Source: Oligoflexia bacterium (GTDB lineage Bacteria; Bdellovibrionota; UBA1018). From it: a stretch of 64,000 bases of DNA. Under the pieces are notes generated by a model, which saw only the letters and a list, made by a program, of their open reading frames with translations, was not told the DNA's origin and searched no databases. The translations under genes were made by a program, and so were the position numbers. The stretch lies in NCBI GenBank assembly GCA_023701205.1, contig JAMPXJ010000021.1:10054-74053 (forward strand), in the 5' to 3' direction. Each line of letters starts with the position of its first letter. The stretch's first letter is position 1. Positions 1-63,401 of this stretch are shown here, piece by piece.

Positions 1-689
1 TGCTGCTCGTCGCGGCGACCCTGGTGTTCACGACGGCCTCGGCCTTTGCCGGCAAGCCGGCGGCGCAGCTGCTGACCCCGACGAACCATTCGCTCATCCT
101 GATCGATCACCAGCCCCAGATGGCGTTCGCGACACGCTCGATCGACATCGCGGAGCTTCGCAACAACACGACCGGTCTGGCGAAGTCGGCGAAGGCCTTC
201 AAAGTCCCGACCCTGCTTACGACCGTCGCCGAGAAGCAGTTTTCGGGACCGATCTTCCCCGAGGTCCAAGCCGTGTTCCCCGACCAGAAGCCCCTCGATC
301 GCTCGACGATGAACGCCTGGGAAGACGACCGGGTTTCGAGGTTCGTGAAGGAGACGGGCAGGAAGAAAGTCGTGATGGCTGCGCTGTGGACCGAGGTTTG
401 CGGAGTCGAGCCCGTTTTGTCAGCTCTCGCCGACGGGTATGAGGTCTACTTCGTGGTGGATGCCTCCGGCGGCGTCAGCAGCGCCGCCCATGACATGGCC
501 GTCCAGCGGATGATCCAGGCGGGAGCCCGTCCGCTCACCTGGATCCAGTATCTCCTGGAGCTGCAGCGCGACTGGGCGCGCGGCGAGACCTATGGCGCGG
601 TCATGTCGATCGTCAAGGAGCACGCCGGTGGCTACGGTCTGGGCGTGATCTACGCCGGCGAGATGTTCAAGGCCAAAGAAGGCAAGTGA
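1..689 (+). CDS. YcaC-like isochorismatase-family hydrolase, copy 1; 5' end lies outside the window, probable signal peptide
   Basis: LILIDHQPQM, DRSTMNAW, LWTEVC and LLELQRDW motifs; frame is open to the window edge and reads LLVAATLVFTTASAFA (signal-like). Confidence 0.9.
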   Translation, partial: LLVAATLVFTTASAFAGKPAAQLLTPTNHSLILIDHQPQMAFATRSIDIAELRNNTTGLAKSAKAFKVPTLLTTVAEKQFSGPIFPEVQAVFPDQKPLDRSTMNAWEDDRVSRFVKETGRKKVVMAALWTEVCGVEPVLSALADGYEVYFVVDASGGVSSAAHDMAVQRMIQAGARPLTWIQYLLELQRDWARGETYGAVMSIVKEHAGGYGLGVIYAGEMFKAKEGK

Positions 690-710
690 TTCATCCGCAA
701 CCCAGTGGCT

Positions 711-745
711 CGGGCCGGCGTTAAGTCGGCCCGGTCCCCTTTTTT
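711..745 (+). terminator. Intergenic hairpin followed by a T-run (terminator, attenuator or mRNA stabiliser)
   Basis: CGGGCCGGC-gttaa-GTCGGCCCG then gtcccctttttt. Confidence 0.55.
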
Positions 746-759
746 CCAGGAGGAAGATC

Positions 760-2580
760 ATGACCAGGAAATATCGGAAGGTTACAGTCGTCGCTCAGTT
801 TCTGATTCTGGGCGCGGCGCTCGCGAGTTGTTCCCAGCCCGGAAGTGCGCCGGAAGGCGAAGCGGAAGCCGGTCCCGCGGAGCTGATCGTGAGAAACGGC
901 AAGGTGTTCACGCATAAAGCGGGCATTCAGCAGGCTTTCGCGGTCCGCAACGGACGTTTCGTCGAGGTGGGCGCGAATGAGCGCATCATGAGGCTGCAGG
1001 GTCCCGCGACCCAGGTGATCGATGCGGGGGGCAGGACGGTGATTCCCGGCCTGATCGATACGCATCTGCACCCGATTCGAGCGGGGCTCAATTACAACCT
1101 GGAGCTTCGTTGGGATGGGGTCAGCTCGCTCAAGGAAGGCCTCAAGATGATCAAGGAGCAGGCGCGCCGCACTCCCGAAGGACAGTGGGTACGCGTGGTC
1201 GGAGGGTGGTCGCCGCATCAGTTCAAGGAAAAGCGACTGCCGACGGTCCAGGAGCTGACCGAAGCCTCGCCGGAGCGGCCGGTGATGGTGCTTTATCTCT
1301 ACTCCCGAGCCCTCTTGAACAAGGCGGGCGTGCGGGCCCTGGGCTATACCGGCCAGACGAAGTTCGCGGGCGGCGAGGTGGCGCTCGACAGCAACGGCGT
1401 TCCGACGGGATTGCTTTCAGCCAAGCCCAACGGACTGATCATCTACAAGACCTTGGTGGGCGCCCCCAAGCTCGCGAGCCTGGAAGAGGAGCGAAACTCC
1501 ACGCTTCAGTTCTTCGGGGAGCTGAGCCGGCTGGGGCTGACCACGGCGATCGACGCGGGCGGAGGCGGATTCTTCTATCCGGAGGATCACCGCGTCGCCA
1601 AGGAGCTTCATGACGCCCGGAAGCTGCCGGTGAAGCTGCCGTTCTATCTCTTCGCTCCCGTGCCCGGCCGCGAGCTTGAGGATTACAAGCGCTGGGCGAC
1701 GATGGTGTCTCTGGCCACCCTGCATGAGATCTCGCACATGATTCCCTATCATCTGGTGGGCGGCGGCGAGAACCTCACGGCGGCGGCGGCGGATTTCGAG
1801 AACTTCCTCGAGCCGCGCCCGGAGCTTCCGCCGAAAATGGAGGCCGAGCTCAAGCCCATTCTTCGTCAGATTTTCCAGAGTCAATGGATCTTCCGAATCC
1901 ATGCCACTTATGACGAGAGCATCTCCCGCGTCCTGAACGTCGTGGAGGAGCTCAAGCGGGAGGGCGGCCCGTTCCCGGAGCGCTTCATCATCGACCATGC
2001 CGAGACGATCTCGAAAGAGAACCTGCGCAGGATCAAGGACCTCGGCGGCGGGATTTCGATCCAGGACCGGATGGCCTTCCAGGCGGAGGAATTCGTCGCG
2101 CGGTATGGGAAGAAGAAGGCCGAGAGCGCCCCGCCCATCGGCGACATCCTCGAAATGGGGATCCCGTTGGGCTCGGGGACGGATGGCACTCGCGTCTCGA
2201 GCTACAATCCTTGGGTGTCGCTCTACTGGATGGTGAGCGGGCGGAGTGTGGGCGGCCTGAAGCATCTGAGCGATCGCAACCGCGTGTCCCGCGAAAAGGC
2301 GCTCTATCTCATGAGCAAAGGCGCCGCCTGGTTCTCCAAGGAGGAGAACGTCAAGGGCGACATCAGCCCGGGCGAGGCCGCGGATTTCGCGATCCTGAGC
2401 GAGGATTACTTCAGCGTCCCCGAACGGCGGATCAAGGATCTTCACTCGGTTCTGACGATGCTGGATGGGAAGACGGTCCACGCCGGCGGGCCGTTTGAGC
2501 GTCTGGCGAGTCCGATGCCGAGGGCGATTCCGGAGTGGTCGCCAGTGAATTACTACGGCGGTTACCAGTATCGCCGGTAA
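760..2580 (+). CDS. YtcJ/NfdA-like amidohydrolase (amidohydrolase_3), predicted lipoprotein
   Basis: PGLIDTHLH, RIHATYDE, IDHAET, GTDGTRV motifs; lipobox LASC; SD aggagg. Confidence 0.9.
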   Translation: MTRKYRKVTVVAQFLILGAALASCSQPGSAPEGEAEAGPAELIVRNGKVFTHKAGIQQAFAVRNGRFVEVGANERIMRLQGPATQVIDAGGRTVIPGLIDTHLHPIRAGLNYNLELRWDGVSSLKEGLKMIKEQARRTPEGQWVRVVGGWSPHQFKEKRLPTVQELTEASPERPVMVLYLYSRALLNKAGVRALGYTGQTKFAGGEVALDSNGVPTGLLSAKPNGLIIYKTLVGAPKLASLEEERNSTLQFFGELSRLGLTTAIDAGGGGFFYPEDHRVAKELHDARKLPVKLPFYLFAPVPGRELEDYKRWATMVSLATLHEISHMIPYHLVGGGENLTAAAADFENFLEPRPELPPKMEAELKPILRQIFQSQWIFRIHATYDESISRVLNVVEELKREGGPFPERFIIDHAETISKENLRRIKDLGGGISIQDRMAFQAEEFVARYGKKKAESAPPIGDILEMGIPLGSGTDGTRVSSYNPWVSLYWMVSGRSVGGLKHLSDRNRVSREKALYLMSKGAAWFSKEENVKGDISPGEAADFAILSEDYFSVPERRIKDLHSVLTMLDGKTVHAGGPFERLASPMPRAIPEWSPVNYYGGYQYRR

Positions 2581-2647
2581 GAGCGCGCTCCGTTTTGGTG
2601 CCTCCGGGTGCGAGTCACGCCCCGGGGGCACTTCTTAAAAGATTCGG

Positions 2648-3541
2648 TCAGGAACGCTGTTTCCCCGTCACTTCACTCACGCAGGCCAGAAAAGCCTTGA
2701 GCTTCGGCGAGACGAAACGCTGGGCCGGATAGACGACATAGAAGGGTTCGCTCCCAGAGGACCATTCCGGAAGGACCCGGACCAGCCTGTCGGCGAAGAC
2801 ACCTTGTCTGGCCACGAAGGTCGGGAGCAGGGCGATTCCAACGGATCTCACGGCCAGGCTTGCGAGAATGGAGAGGTTGCTCGAGGTCACCCGATCGGGA
2901 ACCGCGATCTTGAGGCGGGTTTTCCCGTTCTCCAGCTCCCATTCCGGGCTGTCGCTATGGCCGGTGAAGGCGAGACAGGCGTGGTTGACCAGATCCTTGG
3001 GATGGGCTGGAGAACCGGCACGCTTGAGATAGGCGGCGCTCGCGAAAAGCTGGAACTCGCCACCCCCGATCTTCTTCGCGATCAGCGTGGAATCCGCAAG
3101 GTGGCCGGCCCGCACCGCGACGTCCACGTTCTCTTCCATGAGGTCGACGATCCGATCCGTGAGCAGGAGGTCAACCTGGACGTCCTTGTACGCTTTCAGG
3201 TAACGCTGAAGCACCTCTTCGAGGAGCGCGCTTCCAAGCTCCACCGGAGCGGTGATGCGAAGGAGGCCCGTAGGCGACTCCTGCGTGCTCTTTGCGTTCG
3301 CCTCGGCCTCGGCGAGCTCGGCCAGGATCCTCGTGCAGGTCTGGAAATACTTGCTCCCGACGTCGGTCAGGTGGAGCTTTCGGGTCGTGCGCCGGATCAG
3401 GGCGACGCCCAGGCGATCCTCCAGGAGCGCGACCTTGCGGCTCACGGAGGATTTGGGGAGTTTCAGCTGGCGCGCCGCCTTCGTGAAGCTGCCCGCCTTG
3501 ACGACCGCGGCAAAAACCTCAATTTGATTGATATCCGACAT
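2648..3541 (-). CDS. LysR-family regulator (CrgA/DmlR-like)
   Basis: GSFTKAARQL..KSSVSRKVALLEDRLGVALIRRTTR HTH; start set to ATG 3541 with SD AAGGAG. Confidence 0.93.
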   Translation of the reverse strand: MSDINQIEVFAAVVKAGSFTKAARQLKLPKSSVSRKVALLEDRLGVALIRRTTRKLHLTDVGSKYFQTCTRILAELAEAEANAKSTQESPTGLLRITAPVELGSALLEEVLQRYLKAYKDVQVDLLLTDRIVDLMEENVDVAVRAGHLADSTLIAKKIGGGEFQLFASAAYLKRAGSPAHPKDLVNHACLAFTGHSDSPEWELENGKTRLKIAVPDRVTSSNLSILASLAVRSVGIALLPTFVARQGVFADRLVRVLPEWSSGSEPFYVVYPAQRFVSPKLKAFLACVSEVTGKQRS

Positions 3542-17901: not shown

Positions 17902-20900
17902 ATGATCTCGACCATCGTCGGTGCCTCGATCAAGAACCGCTGGCTCGTCATCCTGCTGGCCGCGATGACAGGCTTCGCGGGCTGGCAGGCGTTCCGGGGA
18001 CTCCCGGTGGATGCCGTCCCGGATGTCACGAGCGTTCTCGTACAGGTGACCACGCAGGTCCCGGCACTGGGTCCTGAGGAGATCGAGCGGACGGTCACGG
18101 TGCCGATCGAGTCAGGTCTCAACGGTGTTCCGGGCGTGGTCCAGGTGCGTTCGATGACGCGCTACGGGCTTTCGGTGGTCTCGGTGGTCTTTGAAGACGG
18201 AACCGAGATTTACCGGGCAAGGCAGCTCGTGTCCGAGCGCCTGCAGGCAATCCGCCCGCAGCTCCCGGCGGAGGTCGAGCCCGCGCTGGCTCCGGTCTCG
18301 AGCGGGCTCGGGGAGATTTTCCATTACATCATCGAGGCGGATCAGGTCGCCCAGGGCGAGGCTCGGCTCGAGCAGCTCAGGGAGCTTCGCGGCCTTCAGG
18401 AGGGTTACGTCAAGCCCCGCCTGCTCGGCGTCAAAGGCGTGGCCGAAGTCAACAGCATCGGCGGCTACGAGCGCCAGTATCACGTGCAGCCCGATCCCGC
18501 GAAGATGGCCCGACATGGCATCCACTTCAGCGATTTCGAGGAGGCCATCGCAAAGGTGAACCGCAACGTCGGCGGCGGCGCGATCGAGCAATCCGGCGAC
18601 CAGTTCATCGTGCAGGGAAGCGGGCTATTCAAGTCGCTTGACGATATCCGGGACGTCCCGGTCAAGACTTTGGAGAACCTCAGAACCGTGCTGATCGGCG
18701 ATGTGGCCACGGTTGGGCCGGGACGGGAGCTGCGGACGGGAGCTGCGCTTCACAATGGGCAGGAAGTCGTCCTGGGCACGGCGATGATGCTGCTCGGGGA
18801 GAACAGCCGAACCGTCGCGTTTCGCGTGGGAGAGCGGATTCGCGAGCTCGAGCCGGGGCTTCCCAAAGGGTTCCACATCAAGACGGTCTATGACCGCGGC
18901 GAGCTGGTGGACTCCACGCTCGAGACGGTGCTGCACAACCTGACCCTGGGCGCGATCCTCGTCATCGGGGTGCTGCTGCTGCTCGTGGGGAATCTCCGCG
19001 CCGCACTGATCACGGCCATCGTGATCCCGCTTTCGCTCCTGATCACCTTCATCGCGATGCGGGCGTTCGGGATCTCCGGGAATCTGGTGAGCCTGGGCGC
19101 GCTGGATTTCGGGATCATCGTCGACGGGGCGGTGATCGTGCTCGATAACTGCGTCCGGCACCTTCACGCTCGCGCCAAGGGGCTCGGGCGGAGCCTGACT
19201 GACGGAGAGCTCCAGGCCACGATCCGGGAGGCCACCCTCGAGATCCGCAAATCCGCCGGCTTCGGGGAGCTGATCATCGTCGTCGTCTTCCTGCCGATCT
19301 TCGCTTTCGTCGGGGTCGAGGGCAGGATGTTCGCGCCCATGGCCGCGACCTTCATCTTCGCCATACTGGCGGCGCTGGTCCTCTCGTTCACCTTCGTGCC
19401 GGCGCTGGCGAGCCTGCTTCTCCAGGGGAGGGTCGCCGACGAGGAGCCCTGGCTGATGAGGCGGCTCAGCCGGCTCTACGAGCCGTTGCTTGGTCGGAGC
19501 CTGGGCCTGCGCAAAGCCGTGCTGAGCCTGGCGGTCGCGGCGGTTCTCGCTGGGGCGCTGCTTTTCACGAGGCTTGGCGGGGAGTTCCTGCCGCAGCTCA
19601 ACGAGGGCTCGATCGCGCTCCAGTTCATCCGGCCGGTCTCGGTGGGGCTCTCCCATTCGGTGGGGCTCGAGCAGAAGTCCCAGGTCCTGCTCTCGAGAGC
19701 GCCCGAGGTGAGCCATGTTTTCGGGCGGATCGGAACCTCCGAGGTCGCGACTGACCCCATGGGGGTCAATATCTCGGACACGTACGTCATGCTCAAGCCG
19801 CGCGAGCAGTGGCCGGAGGTCAACGGCAGGCGCCGGACCAAGGAGGAGCTCGTGCGGTTCCTGCTCGCGGAGCTCGATTCGGAGCTCGCCGGTCAAAGGG
19901 TGCTCGCAAGCCAGCCGATCCAGCTGCGCTTCAACGAGCTCCTCGAAGGAACGCGGGCGGACATCTCGCTGAAGATCTTCGGGGACGATCAGAAAACCAT
20001 CACCGAGCTCGCGCAGAAGGCCGCGACGATTCTGGAAAAAATCACGGGCGCGGGCGATGTGGAACTCGAGGCCAAAGGCGTGATGTCCGTCCTCGAGGTG
20101 ACGCCTCGCAAGGAGCTCCTCAAACGGCTCGGCGTTTCAAGCCAGGAGGTGCTCGAGACGGTGGAAACGGCGGTGGGCGGCCGGGAGGTCGGCACGTTCT
20201 ACGAGGGCACGCGCCGTTACCCGATCGTGGTGCGGCTCGGGGAAAAGGAGCGCTCGGATATCGAAACGCTCAAGGAGCTGCCCGTCGGGATCGCCGGGGC
20301 GGCGACGCTGCCGCTCAAGCAGGTGGCGGAGATCCGTTTCAAGGAAACCTTCAGTGCCTCGAGTCGCGAGCAGACCAAGAAGCGCATCGCTGTGCTGGTG
20401 AACCCGCGGGGAAGGGATACCGAGGGCTTCGTGAAAGAGGCTCAGGCGAAGGTCGCCGCGGGGCTTGAGCTCCCGCCGGGTGCCTACCTGGAATGGGGAG
20501 GGAATTTCAGGAATCTGAAGGAGGCGCGAAGCCGCCTGGCGCTACTGGCGCCCGTGGCGCTCGTGCTGATCCTGCTGATGATCTTCGCCGCGTTCCGGAA
20601 CTGGATCGAAACGGGGCTGATCTTCTTGTGCGTGCCTTTCGCCCTGGTCGGAGGCGTGCTCGCGCTGCTCGCGGGCGGTCTGCCCTTCAGCATCTCGGCG
20701 GGCGTCGGCTTCGTGGCGCTTTCGGGCATCGCCGTCTTGAACGGGGTGGTGCTCGTGAACTACTTCAACGTGCTGCGATCGGCGGGGCGCTCGGGGAGGG
20801 AGCTCGTGCTGCAGGGTTCGCTGCTGAGGCTGCGGCCCGTGCTCATGACGGCACTGGTGGATGTCTTCGGCTTTGTCCCGATGGCGTTGTCGACCGGCGT

Positions 20901-55010: not shown

Positions 55011-55343
55011 CTACTCCGGATTCTCGTCATGAGGCGCGTTCACGTCTTTTGATTCCGGAGAGCCTTTCTCACGCAGAAAGATCGAGAGGACGACGAGCAC
55101 CCCGACCGAGAGAAACTCGCTTTGCCAGTTTTGAAACGACTCGAACTTCTCCCAGTTCTCGAAGACCGTCTCGATGAACTCCCCGGAAAGCAGAAACTGG
55201 AAATAGGTGACGGCTTGCTGGCCGTGTTCCTGCTGCTCTTGGTTGTGGTTGTGCAAGCCAACGATGCTTTGGCCAACGAGGAATATCGCAAAGAGAAGGA
55301 AAGTCACGATCCCCAGGCCGTTATTGCGCAGGAATTGGCGCAT
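55011..55343 (-). pseudogene. DUF6766-like membrane protein, apparently internally deleted to about half length
   Basis: NNGLGIV, FENWE joined directly to KFESFQNWQSEFL, KGSPESK..APH. Confidence 0.6.
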
Positions 55344-55400
55344 CTTGCTTCCCTTTCGCACCGGGAAATCACCCGCAAGTCTCAGAGGCGCACGCTGGTT

Positions 55401-57161
55401 TCAAAGCGCCCATCGCTCGAGCTCCGCCTGAGTTCCGATGGCGCAATTTCCCGTCCAGAAGCCGCCGCGAACCCGATAGCTGCGTTGATGACCATCGAGT
55501 ATGAGGGGCCCGCCTGTTCCGAGCTGGAGACTGCGGCACTGCGCGCTCAGTGACTGAATATTCGAGAGTGTCAGGCCAGGGCTCAGGGTCACCGGCAAAG
55601 CAGGATCGAGATCGAGTTTCACATTCAGCAAGCTCAGGTTTTCGAGCGCCTTGCCTCCGAGATCGCCGAGGGAGGCGAGCTCCGAGCCCCGAATCTCGAC
55701 GTTCTGGCCTCGCAGGTGGTTCATCGCGCCGCTCAAGCCGGAGTCCTCGATGCGAACATCCGTGCCAGTGAAAGACGAGCCAGGAAGGAGACGCGTGCGG
55801 ACGATCCGGAGGCCCGTGCCATCCAGTAAGGCCTTCTTGAAAGCGCTCTCTGAAAGTTTTCCGGCAACGAGATTGACCTCTTTCAGATAGATCCCGGAGC
55901 CCCGGATCTCGGCGCCCACGAGCTGCGTCCCCAGGAGGGCCACGTCATTGGCTTCGACCCGGGATTCGACGCACAACGGGTAGGGGTGGGCATTCGGGAG
56001 ATTCAGACAGCCGATCAGCGAGCTCTCGATCTGGATATCGTCCCCGATCACCCTCGAAACCCCATCCTGCCAGCCATTCACGCTCAATTTGGAGTCGAGG
56101 ATCCGGATCCTTTGACCTTGGATCACGCTGCTGCCGCCTTGCGTGTTGTCGATGATGATATCGCTTCCGGTGACTTCAGAGGCGAAGATTGCCGAGTCCT
56201 TGATACGGATCCGATCGCCGGTAACGCGTGCGGCCTGCGTATTCACCAGCGAGATCTCGTTGCCCATGATTTCCGGGACGGAAGCGCTTTCAAGCCGGAT
56301 GGAGTTGCCCTGAATTCGGGCGGTTTCCCGGAGGGTGGAGTTGAAGATCTCGATGCCGTTGCCCTCGATGGACGGAGCCGAATAGTTTTCTGAAAGGACA
56401 AACGTGCCTAACCCCAAGGTGACTCCAGCGGGAACCGCGTAAGCGGCGGGGATCACCGCTCCGGTTTCGTTGATGCGGTGGCGCGGGTGGGAGTCCTGGC
56501 AAAGCTGGGCGACCCGCTTGTGGATAACGCCGATGCTCCGCATCTCCTCGGGCGTGAAGCGGAAGTCCCATTTCCTGGCCAGAAGTGCGGGCTGGTAACG
56601 GGTTCTCAGGTAATGAAGGCCGTTGATGAAATCCGTCTTCACTTCATAAGGCTGCTCCGGGGCGAAGGCATGGAGCCGCTCATGGAGGATAAGGAGCGCG
56701 GTTTGCTCCAGATCCAGGCGCGCCAGCGCCGCCGGAAGCAGATACGTGATGGATCCCCGCGTGCAGCCTACGGGCTCGACAAGAGTGCCGTAAGGCAAGT
56801 TTTCGCTTGGAATGAAAGCGCAGCCCGCGGGAAGCTTGCTGACCAACCGGTACTCGACCGTGGGCCCGAAGACCTCATCCTGCAGAAGGGAACCGAACCG
56901 ATAGCCCGAAGCGCGAAACATGCGGATACCGATGTCCCTGAGCAGGGAGAACATCTGCTGGAGCTCCGCGACGAGCTTCTCATCCATTTGCCAGAGCTCG
57001 TGCTCCAGGGGGCGGAACTTGAGATCGGCAAGTTGGTAGGTCGAGCCATCGATGATGACGGAGCCGCCGTTCTGGGTTTCTCCGCCTGCGGCGCATGCCG
57101 AAGAGGCGGAGGCACCAAGAATAAGCGCGGCCAGAAGGGCGTGCGGGAGGGATGCTTTCAT
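55401..57161 (-). CDS. Secreted protein: GGETQNGG N-terminus, HExxH motif, beta-helix-like repetitive C-terminal half
   Basis: Signal peptide; LILHERLHA; repeated I.G..I.I.(D/N)S units; ATGA overlap with the TIGR02147 gene. Confidence 0.75.
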   Translation of the reverse strand: MKASLPHALLAALILGASASSACAAGGETQNGGSVIIDGSTYQLADLKFRPLEHELWQMDEKLVAELQQMFSLLRDIGIRMFRASGYRFGSLLQDEVFGPTVEYRLVSKLPAGCAFIPSENLPYGTLVEPVGCTRGSITYLLPAALARLDLEQTALLILHERLHAFAPEQPYEVKTDFINGLHYLRTRYQPALLARKWDFRFTPEEMRSIGVIHKRVAQLCQDSHPRHRINETGAVIPAAYAVPAGVTLGLGTFVLSENYSAPSIEGNGIEIFNSTLRETARIQGNSIRLESASVPEIMGNEISLVNTQAARVTGDRIRIKDSAIFASEVTGSDIIIDNTQGGSSVIQGQRIRILDSKLSVNGWQDGVSRVIGDDIQIESSLIGCLNLPNAHPYPLCVESRVEANDVALLGTQLVGAEIRGSGIYLKEVNLVAGKLSESAFKKALLDGTGLRIVRTRLLPGSSFTGTDVRIEDSGLSGAMNHLRGQNVEIRGSELASLGDLGGKALENLSLLNVKLDLDPALPVTLSPGLTLSNIQSLSAQCRSLQLGTGGPLILDGHQRSYRVRGGFWTGNCAIGTQAELERWAL

Positions 57162-57991
57162 TTCAGAGTTCCTTTTTGTTCAGGTTCGGATAGGCGGAAG
57201 AACTGGATGGCCAGTGAGTAGACCTCTTCGCGCTGGTGGCGGGGGACGGCGCTCTCCGCGAATCGGTTGAAATCGCGGCGAAAGCGCTTGATGCGCTCCC
57301 GAAAGAGCGGGAGATCCGACTTGCGAATGGAGACCGTCACGGTCGAGATGTCTCTTTCTTCGACGGATTGCAGGGATATCGCGCGCGAGGCTTTCTCGAG
57401 GATCTGCTGATTGAATCGGCGGATCGCTTCGGAAGGGACGCCGTTGGTGGTCGTCGGGGCCTCGGGCGTGGCTTCGAGCTTGCCGGACTCCAGGCGCAGG
57501 AGCTTGAGCCGAAGCAGGCGCTCGATCGCGAGCTCAGCCTCGACCTGCGAGATGCCCAGGCGCCGGGCGATCCAGGCGGGGTTGGATTTGAAACCCCGCG
57601 TGGCCGTGAGCTCGAGCAGCGCGTAATGGTACCAATCGGAAATCGCTCGAAAGGAGTCCTCCTCGAGCTGCCGGTAACGGTCGCGAGCCTGATCGAGCTG
57701 GCTTTGGATCCGCTGGAGAGCTGCCTCCCGGGCGCCCTTGGAGCGGGCATCCTCCGAGGCCACCAGGTCCTGGAAGCGCACGATCTCACCTTTTGAGAGC
57801 CCCAGGCGCATGCCGATCCCCGCGGCGGAAGCCGCCGAAAGCCCCTGCTTCCGGTTCAGCACCTCGCTGAGGCGCGCGGAGGAGACGCCCAGGTCCCGTG
57901 CGAACGCGCGAAGCGAATAGCGGGGGTTGGCCCGGCAACGGCTTTCGAGTCGTTCGCGCAGGAAGCGGCGGTAGTCCGAGGTTTCTCGCAT
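57158..57991 (-). CDS. TIGR02147-family protein (HTH + DUF4423), copy 1
   Basis: NPRYSLRAFARDLG, ISDWYHYALLEL, WIARRLGIS, EERDIS, VYSLAIQFF. Confidence 0.9.
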   Translation of the reverse strand: MRETSDYRRFLRERLESRCRANPRYSLRAFARDLGVSSARLSEVLNRKQGLSAASAAGIGMRLGLSKGEIVRFQDLVASEDARSKGAREAALQRIQSQLDQARDRYRQLEEDSFRAISDWYHYALLELTATRGFKSNPAWIARRLGISQVEAELAIERLLRLKLLRLESGKLEATPEAPTTTNGVPSEAIRRFNQQILEKASRAISLQSVEERDISTVTVSIRKSDLPLFRERIKRFRRDFNRFAESAVPRHQREEVYSLAIQFFRLSEPEQKGTLK

Positions 57992-57995
57992 GACG

Positions 57996-58027
57996 GGCCA
58001 TTAATCATGGCCTGGGCGCTTGGTCAA
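57996..58027 (-). promoter_or_regulatory. Putative promoter with an overlapping dyad operator
   Basis: TTGACC-N16-ATTAAT, 8 nt before the ATG, no SD; GGCCAT-N5-ATGGCC at 57996-58012. Confidence 0.5.
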
Positions 58028-58069
58028 TAGTTCGCGGAGCAATGTGCTCTGTGAGTGGGAGAGCGGCGA

Positions 58070-58814
58070 CTAGCCCGTTTTCACATAGACCACGTGACGG
58101 ACTTCTCTTTTCATTAACCGACCCAGAGTCTTAATGGCTGGCTGAGAGGTCCCGCCGCGAAACTCGGCGACAGCAAGAGGTGACCCGTCTTGCTGATGCC
58201 CAGACCTTGGATCTAAGGATGCAGGCAGAACGTGAATCCTCCTGTCCGCGCGCCTCCCTCCTGTGCGACATACGTGAATGCGCCCATGAACCCAAGGGCG
58301 GAGCTTTCTTTTTAACTAAGGTCATCAGGGCAAGATCAGTGCGCCCAAAAAGGACATCGTATCGGATGCCGAAGCCAAGGCGACGCAGCAGCAGCCCGAA
58401 ATCAACGTCGTCCGCCAATGACACTCCGATGCGGACATTCCGCGGTACTTTGCCAGCTACCTCCTTGAGCGTCCGCTTGAGCCACGGAATGGCTTGATGT
58501 CTTTTTCTCGGGTCATATTCAAAGAAGATCACGCTTTCGCCGCGGACTCTTGGCTTCTTTGCTTTCATGGTCAGCAGGACTGCCAGAGGAGCGCCTTTCA
58601 CCCGGAAAATCCGAATCGTACCCGTGCTCCTGGCCTGAGATAGGATTTGCGAAGCGATGGCCTCTTGCGCGGCTTCTGCCTTTTTGCTCGGCGCCCGCCT
58701 AACTCCGGAGTGCTTTAACCGACTCATCGCCATCCACTTGGCGAGATTCTGAATCAGGGCTGACGTTTCGGCATCACTGAGGTGACCCATTGTTTTCTTT
58801 GTTCGTGCTCTCAT
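58070..58814 (-). pseudogene. Decayed GNAT-fold-like gene
   Basis: After KKKAPP, coding sense continues in other frames: GFTFCLHP*IQGLGISKTG (in-frame TAG) and FRGGTSQPAIKTLGRLMKR...KTG*. Confidence 0.55.
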
Positions 58815-58827
58815 TGCGGGTTCAATT

Positions 58828-59543
58828 TTAAGTTCGAACGCCACTTTCCAAAAAGGCGATCTCGGGCTTTTTTGTGTCAACCTGACACATCACCCCGAGC
58901 GGGAAGGTGATCAACGGATCGGAATGCCCGAAGTCCACGCCGGTGATGACGGGGAAGCGATAACCCCGAAGGGCGTCATCGAGAATCATCTCCAGGCTGT
59001 CATCCGCTTTGAAACCAACGGAGCTGACGAAGCGACCGACGACCAACCCCGCGATCTGATCAAAGACGCCCATATGGCGAAGTTGCGTGAACATTCGGTC
59101 GATCGTTCGGGAGGACTCGGCTTCGTCGTCCTCGACAAAGAGGATTCTGCCCTTCATCTTCGGCCAATAGGGCGTTCCCGCCAGGAGGAGCAGGGTGCCG
59201 ACGTTGCCTCCGATGATCGGGCCTTTCGCTTTTCCTTTGCGGTAAACGCGCCAGCCCTCATTGGGTCTGATGGGAATTATATCCGCCCCAATAAGCCAAG
59301 ATTCCATCGATCTTCGGGTTGCGGAAAAAATCATGGAGCGCTTTGCCGCTCTTTGATCGTCCCGGCGGCGTGGCCCACCGTCTTTCGGCAATTCGCAGCC
59401 TCCACCACCTGGAAGCCCTTGCTCCGGAGAAAGCCGTAACTTCGTTGAATCGCTTCCTCGGAGCTGACCGAGATCGGCGTGGAAAACGCGACGATGCCGA
59501 GAGTGTCACCCGGCTTGAGCGCCTTGGGTTTGAGCAGCTTCAA
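58828..59543 (-). pseudogene. S66 LD-carboxypeptidase/MccF-family gene, frameshifted and internally deleted
   Basis: KPKALKPGDTLGIVA (frame a), NPKIDGILAYWGGYNS (frame b), GPIIGGN..ILFVED..DFGHSDP (frame c); the GYSD nucleophile segment is absent. Confidence 0.88.
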
Positions 59544-60145
59544 ACCTGCCCTCCAAGCTCGAACCGGAAGATCGACCGCTCCGCCTCCGGGTTGCTGAGC
59601 CAGTGAGCGCCGATTCGATGGTACCCGGCCTGTTCAAATCCCTTCGTCAATCCGGGCCACAGGACGTGCTCTTTGTGCTTCTCGACGGCGCTGGCATCGA
59701 AGGGATAGCCCTCGATGGCTTTCCAGCCTCTTTCGCGGCCATAGGCTTTCAGCGCCTCGAGGATCCTGGACTGAAGGCCCGCGCCTCGAAAGGCTTTCGC
59801 GATGGTGAAACAGGTGATCCCCGCAACCGTGTTCGCGCTCTCGCCGACCTGAGCAACCCGCTTCCAGGTCCAATGAAACTCCGAAAGCGGACCCACGGAG
59901 AGCCACGCCACGAGCTGCTCGCCCTGATAGGCCAGCGCGCCGACGTGAAATCCTGAGCGGACTTTTTCAAATACCGCTGCTCGATTTTGATCCGGGCGGT
60001 CCTTTTGCCGCTGCTTCCACTCATCCATGGATGTGACTTTCACGTGCCAGAAGGCGCAGTAGCAACCGCCATCGGACTGACATGCGGTGAGCGACTCATA
60101 GTCGGCGAAATTATCGAGAGTAAGCTGGCGGATCGTGATTTTCAT
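59540..60145 (-). CDS. GNAT-family acetyltransferase-like protein
   Basis: GGCYCAFW, ITCFTIAKAFRGAGL, AIEGYP; ATGA overlap. Confidence 0.85.
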   Translation of the reverse strand: MKITIRQLTLDNFADYESLTACQSDGGCYCAFWHVKVTSMDEWKQRQKDRPDQNRAAVFEKVRSGFHVGALAYQGEQLVAWLSVGPLSEFHWTWKRVAQVGESANTVAGITCFTIAKAFRGAGLQSRILEALKAYGRERGWKAIEGYPFDASAVEKHKEHVLWPGLTKGFEQAGYHRIGAHWLSNPEAERSIFRFELGGQV

Positions 60146-61026
60146 GGGCATTTCTCCTGAGGCTTCAGCAAAAATATAACAGCGATACCATAAAGCAAGG
60201 TTGGAATAATGCCGGTATCTGCCGCGACAGTTTCAAACATCCCGATTCGGGAGCCGGGAATCGCAAAAAAGATGGCCGGAAACAGAAACTGGAATGAGAA
60301 GTTATGGACTGCATGCATCAGACTTGCGGTCCATACGCTTCCGGAGCGCATGCGAAGCCATCCAATCACAACGGAGATTGCCAGAATGGAAAGGAGGTAC
60401 AGCGCGCCCATCAGAACTGGCGAATCGGTGCGATAATAGCCTCCGTACATGATCAGGGGCAGATGCCATAGCGCCCAGATCACACCAGAAACAAGGACTG
60501 GAAACCTGATCCGCGTCACATACAGTTTCGGGAGCAAGAACCCGCGCCACCCGAGCTCCTCGCCAATGGCACCGAGGAGTCCAAGGACGAGGACAAGGAT
60601 TCCCGTTTTTATGCGTCCGTGCAGGACGGCCTGCTCGGGCAGACCGAAGTTTCTGATGTCAAGTAAATCGCAGATGATGGAAGAGGAGAGGCAGAGGATC
60701 AGGGGGATGCCTATGGCGAGAAGCCAATATCTCCGACGGCCCAGGGCAAGTCCGACATCACCGTATCCCGTGCCGGTCCAATATCGGACGGCGAGGGATA
60801 CTAGCCCTGGCACCCACATGATCGCCGTTAAGATCAGAAGAGAGTGGAGACCCGAGAATGAGCGAATGCCTCCATGGTGAATGATCGCACCCATCGCGAT
60901 GTAGGTGATTCCAAAAGTAGTACACAAAAAGAGCAAGAGGGCTCGACGTGTTTTGGTGGCGGATATATTTCCGCCACTTATCCGAAATCTGTTTCGTAGT
61001 TCGCTCATCATACCCGTTGATACCAT
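60142..61026 (-). CDS. CPBP/Abi (CAAX) intramembrane metalloprotease
   Basis: GEELGWRGFL, WALWHLP, SGSVW...HAVHN. Confidence 0.92.
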   Translation of the reverse strand: MVSTGMMSELRNRFRISGGNISATKTRRALLLFLCTTFGITYIAMGAIIHHGGIRSFSGLHSLLILTAIMWVPGLVSLAVRYWTGTGYGDVGLALGRRRYWLLAIGIPLILCLSSSIICDLLDIRNFGLPEQAVLHGRIKTGILVLVLGLLGAIGEELGWRGFLLPKLYVTRIRFPVLVSGVIWALWHLPLIMYGGYYRTDSPVLMGALYLLSILAISVVIGWLRMRSGSVWTASLMHAVHNFSFQFLFPAIFFAIPGSRIGMFETVAADTGIIPTLLYGIAVIFLLKPQEKCP

Positions 61027-61147
61027 AATAATGGTGGCTGTGGAGTGCAGCCTTACGATCCGTCGCCCTGTTTCTCTTTAGTAGACTTCCCTAGCCAACC
61101 CGGGCGTGATAGCAGTTTGCGCTGACTCGGATCGAAGGGGGTATCAG

Positions 61148-61888
61148 ATGCGGCTGCTTTGGCTTGGTTTATTTGTTTTTGGCTCTTGCGCGAATGCTTT
61201 CGCTGCCTTCGAGGAGGCTGAGCTCGCCCGATTGGATGATTCGAGAATTACCTTTTACCTCGATCGTCCCTCATCTCAGTCGACGTATCCGATTCTTCTT
61301 TTCCTGCAGGGTTCCGAATGCAGGTCCATTCGGAGTCGCTCCTTCATGCCCGAGAATCCGGCGTCACTCTACGGTGTGGGCATCGTCCTTATAGAGAAGT
61401 ACGGAATCACCCACCGGCAGAATTCCGAAAACGATTCCTCGAACTGTACGACCGAGTACCGCCAGGGCAATACGCTCGATCAGCGTCTCACTGATGCCCT
61501 TCAGGTGATCGCTCATCTGCGGAAGGCGGAGCCCGGCTGGAATCGAAAGCTTATCATCCTCGGTGGCTCCGAGGGGGCGGCGTTGGCGCCGTTGGTCGGA
61601 GCGTTGACGCCTGAAACGGCGAAAGTCGCCATGCTCGCGGGCGGCAATGGCCGTCTCATGCTCGAGGACATGCGTGAGTCGCTTGAGCTCACGGCCCGGG
61701 CCAACAAGTTGCCGGAGGAGCAGCTCAAAGAGCTCCTGATGGAGTTTGATCAGAAGGTCTTGGAGATCAAAGCTCATCCGCGAACAGATGTCCTTTATCT
61801 TGGCCAGTCTGGCAGCGAGCTTTGGAGTGGTTGCAGTGCTGCACTTGGTGACGCCGCTCAGGAGCGCGCGCGATCAGTAGTGGTCTAG
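61148..61888 (+). pseudogene. Secreted alpha/beta hydrolase, probably 3'-truncated
   Basis: LLFLQGS, IEKYG, GGSEG nucleophile elbow; ends without recognisable catalytic Asp/His segments. Confidence 0.6.
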
Positions 61889-61986
61889 AGTTCAACTCAA
61901 AAGAGTAGTAGGTACAATGACCTAAATGGTATGAGCACGAGCTTCGTAGTGCGCATGTGCTGGGTTCCCACGTTCGTAGATACTCG

Positions 61987-62038
61987 TAGATCAGTTTGAT
62001 CTATAACAATTGCGCATTGCGAGCGGCCGGACTATATA
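61987..62038 (+). promoter_or_regulatory. Putative promoter and upstream dyad for TIGR02147 copy 2
   Basis: TAGATCA-N3-TGATCTA (61987-62003); TTGCGC-N17-TATATA ending 9 nt before the ATG; no SD. Confidence 0.45.
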
Positions 62039-62047
62039 CAGCTTCGA

Positions 62048-62866
62048 ATGAACACGGAAAGTAGCGATTACCGCGATGTCCTGCGGACCGAATATGCGCG
62101 CCGACGCAATAGAAATCCCTCGTATTCTCTCAGGGCGTTCGCTCGCGATCTAGACATCGCGTACTCTCGTTTGAATGAAGTTATAAATGCTAAGCGCGGC
62201 ATTTCTGCTGTTGCTGCTGATCGTTTAGCGATGAACTTGGGATTAAGCGAAACTGAAAAAAACATCTTTGTTGCCCAGGTGGAAGCTAGTCACGGCCGCA
62301 GTAATGCGGTTCGAAATCGGGCACAGGCGAGAGCTCGCGAACTTCGCGCTCAAACTGAACAGAATTCGATTCAGCTCGATGCCTTTGAGATGATTTCTCA
62401 CTGGTATCACTATGCGATTTTAGAGCTTCCTGCGCTTAAGGAATTCCAAGCAGACCCACAGTGGATCGCAGACCGGCTTGGTATCTCAAGGACCGAAGCG
62501 GAAGGAGCGATATCCCGCCTTTTCCGAGTGGGACTGTTAAGGAAAACTAAGACGGGTTTTGAGCCAGCACGTGATTTCACATTCTCAACAACGGATATTC
62601 CGTCCGCAGGGCTAAAACGACATCATGAACAAATCCTTGCCAAGGCCACTGACGCAATTCATTTTCAAGACATCCACGAGCGCGATCTTTCTGCCGTCAC
62701 GGTGGCTATCGATCGTAAGGACATCCCTAAAGCTAAAGAAATGCTGAAAACATTTCGACGGCAATTCATGCGTGAAATGGAAAAAAGCGCAGATCGGGAT
62801 GCAGTTTACAGCTTGGCGCTGCAATTTTTTAGAATCGATAAAACACCTAGGGGGAAAAATGAGTAA
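62048..62866 (+). CDS. TIGR02147-family protein, copy 2 (lower GC)
   Basis: NPSYSLRAFARDL, ISHWYHYAILEL, WIADRLGIS, HERDLS, VYSLALQFF. Confidence 0.9.
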   Translation: MNTESSDYRDVLRTEYARRRNRNPSYSLRAFARDLDIAYSRLNEVINAKRGISAVAADRLAMNLGLSETEKNIFVAQVEASHGRSNAVRNRAQARARELRAQTEQNSIQLDAFEMISHWYHYAILELPALKEFQADPQWIADRLGISRTEAEGAISRLFRVGLLRKTKTGFEPARDFTFSTTDIPSAGLKRHHEQILAKATDAIHFQDIHERDLSAVTVAIDRKDIPKAKEMLKTFRRQFMREMEKSADRDAVYSLALQFFRIDKTPRGKNE

Positions 62867-63401
62867 TATAATCGTCGCGGTTCTTTGTTTGATCGCACTA
62901 ACTCAAGTTGGTTACGCAGGGACAGAAGCTGGGAATGGTGGACAAGACGTTGCGGCACAATTTGTTCAAGCGGCTTACGGCGCTCTAAATGACTTAGATA
63001 ACTACTTTACAGGGCCGGAGAATTATTGCCGCTACAAGGTGTATGCAAGTCTATGTGAGTTGGATCGTGTGGCGGTCAGGGGTGCGATTTCTGAGGCAAA
63101 GGTCCTGGCAGTACCGTCTCTCGTTGAGCAAGATCCAAATACGGGTGAACTAGTCGAATATGCGGCGCTGAATTTTCCTGAGCAAAAGTTGATTAAGGTA
63201 AGTATCGCGTATTGGAAGCGTCCCACGAGCTGCGTAATGAGAAAGATGAATATAGCGTTTCATGAATTTCTCGGCGTAATGCGTTTGGAGGAAACGACGT
63301 ATCAGTACTCATCTCTGTTACGGAATTGGTGGACCAGTAACCACGGAATGATGAGTTTTAAAGGGTGTGAAGAAGAGCGTGGGACTGGTAGTGGCCCATA
63401 G
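62859..63401 (+). CDS. Secreted protein with GTEAGNGG N-terminus and HEFLG motif
   Basis: MSNIIVAVLCLIALTQVGYA signal; 8-bp overlap with the TIGR02147 stop; AALNFP, IAFHEFLGV. Confidence 0.75.
   Translation: MSNIIVAVLCLIALTQVGYAGTEAGNGGQDVAAQFVQAAYGALNDLDNYFTGPENYCRYKVYASLCELDRVAVRGAISEAKVLAVPSLVEQDPNTGELVEYAALNFPEQKLIKVSIAYWKRPTSCVMRKMNIAFHEFLGVMRLEETTYQYSSLLRNWWTSNHGMMSFKGCEEERGTGSGP

Follow-up and report, generated by a model that had tools for sequence, protein, structure and literature searches.

Why should a gene for a putative DNA-binding regulator be followed, twice on the same contig, by a gene for an unrelated-looking exported protein that carries the same short motif? The question is raised by a window of 64,000 nucleotides (the whole stretch of DNA analysed) from an Oligoflexia bacterium of the phylum Bdellovibrionota (assembly GCA_023701205.1, contig JAMPXJ010000021.1, positions 10,054 to 74,053 of the forward strand). 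Between window positions 55,401 and 63,401 an initial annotation, made from the letters alone, had noted two diverged copies of a two-gene module. In each, a gene of the TIGR02147/DUF4423 family, here called the regulator, overlaps the start of a gene for a protein, here called the cargo, with a signal-peptide-like N-terminus, a short Gly-x4-Asn motif (the tag) and, later, a hydrophobic segment ending in His-Glu. We lean towards the reading that this is a self-contained cassette, in which a regulator would control its own operon and an exported cargo would bear a modular tag. The cassette is widespread and heavily multiplied in Bdellovibrionota. It is also undescribed in print, no description of it being found among the papers listed for TIGR02147/DUF4423 and Bdellovibrio.

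The features of the two copies, in window coordinates, are:

57158-57991, minus strand: copy 1 regulator, 277 amino acids (aa), TIGR02147/DUF4423, with an N-terminal HigA/XRE-type helix-turn-helix (HTH) and a second winged-helix-like region
55401-57161, minus strand: copy 1 cargo, 586 aa, from the list of open reading frames (ORFs) and family searches
57087-57161, minus strand: predicted signal peptide of the copy 1 cargo
57063-57086, minus strand: tag GGETQNGG of the copy 1 cargo
56670-56684, minus strand: HERLH in the head domain of the copy 1 cargo
58035-58051, minus strand: copy 1 candidate operator CAGAGCA-cat-TGCTCCG, 6/7 arm pairs, centred about 52 nt before the start of the HTH gene
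62048-62866, plus strand: copy 2 regulator, 272 aa, TIGR02147/DUF4423
62859-63401, plus strand: copy 2 cargo, 180 aa, short and lacking the variable tail that its relatives have
62859-62918, plus strand: predicted signal peptide of the copy 2 cargo
62919-62942, plus strand: tag GTEAGNGG of the copy 2 cargo
63261-63275, plus strand: HEFLG in the head domain of the copy 2 cargo
61987-62003, plus strand: copy 2 candidate operator TAGATCA-gtt-TGATCTA, a perfect 7-3-7 palindrome, centred about 53 nt before the start of the HTH gene

The ORFs, the overlaps and the motifs, including the later hydrophobic His-Glu segment, are as the initial annotation had described them. In copy 1 the TGA of the regulator and the ATG of the cargo overlap as ATGA, and in copy 2 the 3′ end of the regulator and the start of the cargo overlap by 8 nt. 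At the N-terminus of both cargos the tag comes directly after a hydrophobic segment with an AxA-type site; signal peptides and export of the cargos are, throughout, predictions made from the sequence by eye.

Is the pairing a peculiarity of this window? The genome it comes from (4.1 Mb in 51 contigs) has 33 TIGR02147 matches, 30 of them above the cut-off. Of the 33, 14 are followed on the same strand by an ORF that has a signal-like segment and a [GQ]N tag, and ten of these 14 pairs overlap as ATGA. Six further TIGR02147 genes have variant or differently oriented partners, two of which are co-directional with variant tags. A crude screen of 20,922 ORFs of the genome found a hydrophobic segment with [GQ]NGG in 16, nine of them directly downstream of a TIGR02147 match. 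Using mechanical ORF calls and a home-made signal-peptide heuristic, the pattern G-x2-3-GN after a signal-like segment is present in 9 of 28 TIGR02147-adjacent ORFs and in 16 of 1629 others (Fisher p 4.7e-11). The initial annotation had staked its proposal on enrichment of the motif downstream of TIGR02147 genes, and the proposal survives this test.

The same arrangement is seen in other genomes. Among relatives 28 loci were collected, 25 of which have a downstream ORF, and 23 of these 25 carry the tag. Eighty loci were taken from named assemblies (Bdellovibrionales, Bacteriovoracaceae, Oligoflexus including O. tunisiensis, Pseudobdellovibrionaceae and similar); 78 have room downstream and 77 an ORF there, which matches a relaxed form of the motif in 70 cases and the literal NGG in 61. 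In other families of the phylum a tagged partner is present at 17 of the 20 loci of the highest-scoring regulators. The modular unit that had been proposed, a dedicated regulator with a variable exported protein in many copies, is thus a recurrent one, within this genome and beyond it.

The association holds when approached from the cargo. Both window cargos belong to the class that we term class a, defined by a conserved N-terminal head domain, and hidden Markov models (HMMs) of this head find 15 matches in the genome of the window, 14 of them no more than 70 bp from a TIGR02147 match. In a set of 21 genomes of relatives, this one included, TIGR02147 is present in 16 and the cargo head in 12; all 12 have TIGR02147, and the five genomes without TIGR02147 have no cargo-head match. 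Outside the genome of the window, 29 of 30 cargo-head matches lie within about 1.5 kb of a TIGR02147 match among those listed, 31 further regulator matches being outside the list. The head family occurs almost exclusively beside these regulators.

Not every pair is arranged as in the window. The lone cargo-head match of this genome without TIGR02147 on its contig is on C4 (21135-22088, minus strand, E 4.8e-7); its regulator may have diverged or been lost. Members of the cargo family are also divergent (contigs C13 and C18) or convergent (C20 and C51) to further regulator paralogs. On C13 (1766-3422) and C18 (54753-56749) a lower-scoring TIGR02147 subfamily (42-63 bits) stands head-to-head with cargo-family genes whose tag is S-G-G-G-x-A-x-V-C and not G-N-G-G, a divergent layout also found in genomes of relatives. 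On C51 (19211-20897) a TIGR02147 gene faces a tagged cargo-like ORF (GIVGNGGG, 296 aa, 20007-20897, minus strand) that converges on it and overlaps its end. The regulator frame there is open for 485 codons and runs through the antisense strand of the cargo, an unusual arrangement.

What kind of protein is the regulator? Both window copies are full-length family members. Copies 1 and 2 score 141.1 and 134.3 bits against TIGR02147 (cut-off 50), covering profile positions 8-271 of 272, and 149 and 154.4 bits against PF14394, DUF4423 (cut-off 30). Their single-protein Pfam HTH matches fall under the Pfam cut-offs. A profile of ten regulator paralogs matches HigA (PDB 2icp) over positions 26-83 with an E-value of 2.8e-4 and, more weakly, ArsR/CzrA/MarR winged-helix proteins over positions 108-184 (E 2.5e-3). 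Neither window regulator has a membrane-like hydrophobic segment, and no tetratricopeptide repeat (TPR) family is among their Pfam matches at E<=0.1. The family is present in 104 of 121 genomes sampled across the phylum. To our knowledge its entry (TIGR02147, ‘Fsuc_second’, and PF14394) gives no function, partner or binding site. In the part of the literature on TIGR02147/DUF4423 accessible to us a single table entry was found (PMC12546842), for the family member Bd3700, listed there as up-regulated during growth in prey.

The resemblance to HigA raises the idea of a toxin-antitoxin-like pair, with a HigA-like antitoxin or regulator and a harmful partner. The matches that suggest it are weak, namely that to PDB 2icp and NCBIfam HigA scores of 22.3 and 26.2 bits for the two window regulators, which lie under the cut-off of 47.7. 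In addition the partner has a signal peptide, comes from many unrelated families and reaches 586 aa, and PADLOC models gave nothing meaningful for the cassette. We give this explanation very little credence.

Upstream of the regulator genes of class-a cassettes lies a palindrome of 7-3-7 form with a CA-N3-TG core and arms that are specific to each paralog. In the genome of the window nine such palindromes are found upstream of eight of 29 regulator genes, all at -60 to -40 and none elsewhere in the interval -400 to -10, against a genome-wide density of 324 per 4.11 Mb. The full 17-mers are unique in the genome. In other genomes a palindrome is centred at -85 to -35 at 30 of 76 loci, and 31 of 35 matches fall in -90 to -31. 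This pattern supports the palindrome as a candidate operator for autoregulation. We note that the 17-nt palindrome of copy 2 occurs, identical and in the same place, upstream of a regulator with 48% identity at locus L063 of another genome. Promoter hexamers read by hand and the idea of near-leaderless transcription were set aside as speculation only, the consensus scan having given no support.

The initial annotation had left the choice between a regulator and a chaperone. Because the palindrome is specific both in position and to the paralog, a DNA-binding autoregulator is favoured over a chaperone, and the first half of that alternative has gained ground at the expense of the second. A related possibility is that the cargo precursor is caught in the cytoplasm by the TIGR02147 protein of the same cassette, aided by translational coupling, so that the activity of the regulator would depend on export of the cargo, or that the regulator is an export chaperone more than a transcription factor. 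The strict one-to-one pairing with overlapping stop and start codons would suit such a partner, as would the co-diversification of regulator subfamily and cargo class (seen in bit-score classes). So would locus L175 (G049:C31:17800-21800), where ORF 673-3507 on the minus strand is a single frame of 944 aa with no internal stop. Its product starts as a full TIGR02147 regulator, continues through a signal-peptide-like hydrophobic segment and the tag GGDVKNGGGG, and ends as a cargo with HELTH. This frame could be either a rare natural fusion, of ToxR-like topology, or the product of a lost stop codon. Against a cytoplasmic escort, the position-specific palindromes point to DNA binding as the chief activity, and the divergent and convergent arrangements make translational coupling impossible where they occur. 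A search among longer proteins found no other regulator-cargo fusions, which is weak evidence on the same side. A complex prediction for the copy 2 regulator and mature cargo scored 0.00 and gives no support, though it is not evidence either way. We judge an escort role very unlikely.

What is the tag? In class a it reads A(-8) x A(-6) / G(-5) x E(-3) V(-2) G(-1) N G G D, with the slash at the predicted cleavage site, and leads into a hydrophobic strand. In 172 of 222 class-a proteins the asparagine falls at residue 20-34, and the mature protein would therefore begin at G(-5). In general form the tag is G-x-[E/D]-[I/V]-G-N, with the asparagine some six residues past the cleavage site and G, P or A after it. 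Thirty-two cargos of other cassettes have no match to the class-a HMM at E<=10 and fall into six BLAST clusters. All 32 have G-N or G-Q, and 31 have G(-5), a position that lay outside the search pattern by which they were found. Their groups include small lipoproteins and DUF4382-like lipoproteins, and in lipoprotein cargos the tag comes immediately after the lipobox cysteine. One group looks PsbP-like from a YP..W pattern judged by eye, without family search or model. In total the tag is found on at least seven cargo groups without detectable sequence similarity, and it is present in tandem duplicate in two proteins, at L158 and L149. On account of its occurrence on unrelated cargo groups and of this duplication, G-x-[E/D]-[I/V]-G-N appears to be a modular linear tag. 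The third positions of its codons vary freely, so that it is conserved as protein and not as DNA; this rules out a DNA element, for example a second operator. The initial annotation had proposed NGG as the shared signal. What is common to the unrelated groups is G-x4-N, and NGG itself is confined to one cargo class.

Could there be no independent tag at all? G-x4-N might be a turn before the first β-strand of old, diverged homologous domains, with a role in folding only and none in sorting or signalling, and the cassette would then consist of a regulator and its target gene. In class a the motif leads straight into a conserved strand (GNGGD-VVC), a segment that is the most confident part of our structural model (mean predicted local distance difference test, pLDDT, 86 over residues 11-20). 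A hydrophobic, strand-like stretch follows the tag in every class, and there are Oligoflexus forms with the motif 60-100 residues in. Since both window cargos share the head domain, the tag is inseparable from that domain within the window alone. Elsewhere the absence of a class-a match in the 32 other tagged cargos and their six clusters, the tandem duplication in two proteins and the fixed distance from the motif to the signal-peptide or lipobox site in unrelated groups all speak against such a turn, and we consider this explanation unlikely.

Most puzzling of all, the tag is nearly exclusive to neighbours of TIGR02147, when a general secretion signal should also turn up on many unlinked genes, so that a direct link between tag and regulator is conceivable. 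In one form of this idea the tag, or the N-terminal peptide that bears it, would be clipped from the cargo and sensed, directly or indirectly, by the DUF4423 region of the adjacent regulator. Each cassette would then report its own export or the presence of neighbouring cells, by analogy with the RRNPP regulator-propeptide pairs of Firmicutes. A tag-regulator link explains the near-confinement of the tag better than a general secretion signal does, the regulator combines an XRE-type HTH with a second domain of unassigned function, and some cargos are tiny (the 68-69 aa lipoproteins at L139 and L142). On the other side, no TPR or other known peptide-binding domain is among the Pfam matches and the window cargos, at 180 and 586 aa, are full-sized. 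There is also no evident cleavage site past the tag, since any of G, P, A, F, I, V, S, H or R can follow the asparagine. Feedback by a peptide is, in our estimate, distinctly unlikely.

We return to the cassette reading and to its second component, the cargo. The initial annotation had taken the two cargo bodies to be dissimilar apart from their motifs; this does not hold, as both share a diverged head domain of about 165 aa. In an alignment of ten paralogs from this genome G, H and E are invariant, and G, G, N and G nearly so. With the profile of these ten cargos 2668 cluster representatives are found at E<=1e-3, 969 of them at E<=1e-10, and nearly all of the 150 best family members have the start of the head at residue 18-30. 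Members have a total length of 180-744 aa, with a GNGG...HE head of about 165-170 aa at the N-terminus and exchangeable tails. The consensus runs from the signal peptide through AGxEVGNGGDxVVC ... ELLDYYEA ... IPDS ... PxGC and on to FPxDKRYxINKDLW ... AGLxLHExIYRE ... H..S...RY. Across 88 members G, D, D, H and E are invariant and probably form a metal-dependent or otherwise catalytic site. Pfam matches in the 88 members are to tails only (MORN_2 in four; Beta_helix, NosD, He_PIG, VWA_2 and Big_9 in one each). The repeat-rich tail of the copy 1 cargo, of about 340 aa after the head, has no family match in Pfam or NCBIfam.

The copy 2 cargo matches the head family in a profile-profile comparison with a probability of 98.4% (E 8e-15, 126 columns), and on this similarity its membership is secure. 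For the copy 1 cargo there is a clear homologue at L131 (E 3e-38). The head itself has no name. Pfam and NCBIfam give no family for 12 cargos and no model that covers the head, ten head-family members are called ‘hypothetical protein’ or are nameless in their sources, and a word-indexed homologue search with either window cargo returned the query alone. Comparison of the cargo profile with PDB sequences gave a lone match at E 1.1. A protein atlas returned just unnamed Bdellovibrionota clusters for the cargo, at 0.86-0.88.

Is the head a zinc protease? The initial annotation had noted the hydrophobic His-Glu segment in both cargos and pointed to HExxH as the zincin motif. HExxH is present in copy 1 (HERLH) and absent from copy 2 (HEFLG). 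Of 194 tagged relatives that have the HE helix, 154 carry Y at HE+3, 13 carry F, ten H (copy 1 included) and eight G, and HExxH is therefore exceptional in the family. One paralogous cargo, on C23 (127706-128926; L019:2031-3248), has a complete metzincin-like signature, HEIGHILGCAH, which hints at descent of the head from a zinc protease. Structure prediction was of limited help. A single-sequence AlphaFold model of the copy 2 cargo has a pLDDT of 35.7 and is unusable. An alignment-based model of residues 24-250 of the copy 1 cargo reached a pLDDT of 59.9 and a predicted template modelling (pTM) score of 0.50. Comparison of this model with the PDB using Foldseek gave no match at E<=1e-3, the best being at E 2.8, with a minigluzincin at rank three (E 3, not significant). 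A VIA wide search with the same low-confidence model gave a best Z of 5.0, on a helical hairpin alone.

Several observations weigh against the cassette reading. Thirteen of the 33 TIGR02147 genes of this genome have no recognisable tagged neighbour, and in a complete genome of another family a co-directional tagged partner is found for just five of 17 regulator genes. At the threshold used, 21 of the 29 paralogs of this genome and 46 of the 76 foreign loci have no such palindrome, and high-scoring lipoprotein-type cassettes are among those without. Upstream of the two window regulators a consensus promoter scan detected nothing that resembles a sigma-70 site. As to expression, one DNA run of a groundwater metagenome is listed as containing this DNA, and no RNA run. 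With respect to the head, homology between the window cargos is thin on the side of copy 1: a profile-profile comparison of the copy 1 subfamily with the family aligns 24 columns around the HE (95.5%) and, separately, the tag, and when the two window cargos are compared directly the tag alone aligns, with a probability of 44%. The tag lies more than 45 residues in for 27 of the 222 class-a proteins, mostly Oligoflexus forms (...HWGVGNGGD), and readings that require a free N-terminus are therefore weakened. Lastly, a search of five complete genomes for the literal coding pattern of G-E-I-G-N gave seven matches against six in the control, with none near TIGR02147; that pattern is too narrow, the tag being degenerate.

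The different base composition that the initial annotation had pointed out is real. The GC content of copy 1 is 0.60-0.64, close to the 0.625 of the genome, and that of copy 2 is 0.47-0.48. For 1-kb windows of the genome the 1st percentile is 0.505, and the whole of the copy 2 cassette falls below it, which suggests that this cassette was acquired by transfer. Four of the 33 regulator paralogs of the genome have a GC content of 0.50 or less. The cassettes may move between lineages.

Other genes surround and separate the two copies. Directly downstream of the copy 1 cargo an ORF of 116 aa (55011-55361, minus strand) matches the first 65 of 221 DUF6766 positions (E 1e-41) and is possibly truncated. 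Between the cassettes an LD-carboxypeptidase (58828-59543, minus strand) is apparently split over two frames: ORF 58828-59391 contains the C-terminal domain PF17676 (E 1.5e-33) and an overlapping ORF (59331-59543) the N-terminal-looking piece. The split may reflect a frameshift, a pseudogene or an assembly error. Also between the cassettes are a CPBP/Rce1-like membrane protease (60142-61026, minus strand; PF02517, E 1.1e-18) and a signal-peptide protein of 260 aa without family match (61106-61888, plus strand).

How might the cassette work? In the mechanism that we propose the first gene would encode a soluble cytoplasmic DNA-binding protein, with an XRE/HigA-type HTH and a DUF4423 region that includes a winged-helix-like stretch. 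Most likely as a dimer, it would bind the 7-3-7 palindrome with the CA-N3-TG core some 50 bp upstream of its own start and so control its own operon. The second gene would be co-transcribed, and translationally coupled through the overlapping stop and start codons. Its product would be exported by the Sec pathway, and signal peptidase I would leave an N-terminus of the form G-x-E-x-[G/Q]-N-G-G in the window copies. The tag, which keeps a fixed spacing to the cleavage site or to the lipoprotein cysteine on otherwise unrelated cargo groups, might be read after export by a putative factor for sorting, release or processing. The window cargos represent the commonest cargo class, with a head of about 170 aa in which G, D, D and H-E are invariant, followed by swappable tails.

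A bolder version, which we regard as doubtful yet worth stating, makes the tag and the TIGR02147 regulator parts of one mechanism, so that a Bdellovibrionota genome would contain dozens of autonomous export-sensing or self-signalling cassettes. The N-terminal peptide of an exported, fast-evolving cargo would be recognised and would feed back on the regulator encoded next to it, upstream. That peptide could be a released ligand, or a handle for a tag-specific sorting or release factor. If true, this would be a new regulator-coupled protein tag, possibly one for deploying variable hydrolase-like proteins during predation.

The value of the cassette does not depend on that version. TIGR02147/DUF4423 is among the most multiplied gene families of predatory Bdellovibrio-type bacteria, and it gains three testable handles: a candidate operator whose arms are specific to each paralog, a partner that is all but obligatory and a six-residue tag on unrelated cargos. 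If the tag is a sorting, release or signalling motif there would be a new route for secreted proteins in these predators, and with it a sequence rule for its substrates. If it is merely structural, the cassettes would still constitute a large undescribed set of one-regulator-one-target switches for fast-evolving exported proteins.

It is useful to compare the cassette with systems that it resembles in part, while lacking features that define each of them. The C proteins of restriction-modification systems are small (about 80 aa) XRE autoregulators with a palindromic operator just upstream of their own gene. The likeness lies in the XRE-type HTH and the short palindrome upstream of the regulator's own gene, with arms that here are paralog-specific; the PADLOC model ‘Control_protein’ faintly matches the copy 2 regulator (E 0.028). 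The window regulators differ in being 272-277 aa with DUF4423, and in that the regulated gene would be for an exported protein. Their neighbours (LD-carboxypeptidase, GNAT, CPBP protease, DUF6766 and unassigned ORFs) are not restriction-modification genes.

In the RRNPP pairs Rap/Phr, PlcR/PapR and NprR/NprX a regulator gene is followed by that for a Sec-exported propeptide with a short peptide motif. The cassette is similar in that an XRE-HTH regulator gene directly precedes one for a motif-bearing product predicted to be exported by Sec. It differs in that no TPR was found, the partner is full-sized and the hosts are Gram-negative. Its motif would be at the mature N-terminus, whereas in the small propeptides it is close to the C-terminus. 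The partners in the window have 586 and 180 aa; small partners of 68-69 aa are found elsewhere.

DUF397 proteins are small and are not known to carry a signal peptide. The Streptomyces XRE-DUF397 pairs (Scr1/Scr2; PMC6262351) are likewise two-gene units present in many copies, with the gene for an XRE regulator first and that for a small partner after it. The partner in the cassette differs in being exported (by prediction), variable and tagged.

With HigA antitoxins the comparison fails at the model cut-off, and the N-terminus of the cassette partner is signal-peptide-like. With zincin metallopeptidases the cargo head has in common a hydrophobic helix that ends in H-E, extended to HERLH in copy 1 and to HEIGHILGCAH in one paralog; it differs in its HExxY consensus (154 of 194), in the HEFLG of copy 2, and in that no match to a family or PDB sequence was found.

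Short sorting signals with dedicated machinery are represented by LPXTG and sortase, PEP-CTERM and exosortase, and the Bacteroidota lipoprotein export signal. Like these, the tag is short, keeps a constant distance to a processing site and is found on many otherwise unrelated exported proteins; unlike them, it is N-terminal and occurs almost only on genes beside one regulator family. That family, finally, is the closest relation of all. The window regulators are full-length members of TIGR02147/DUF4423, and the tagged cargo downstream and the palindrome upstream are additions to what the family entry contains.

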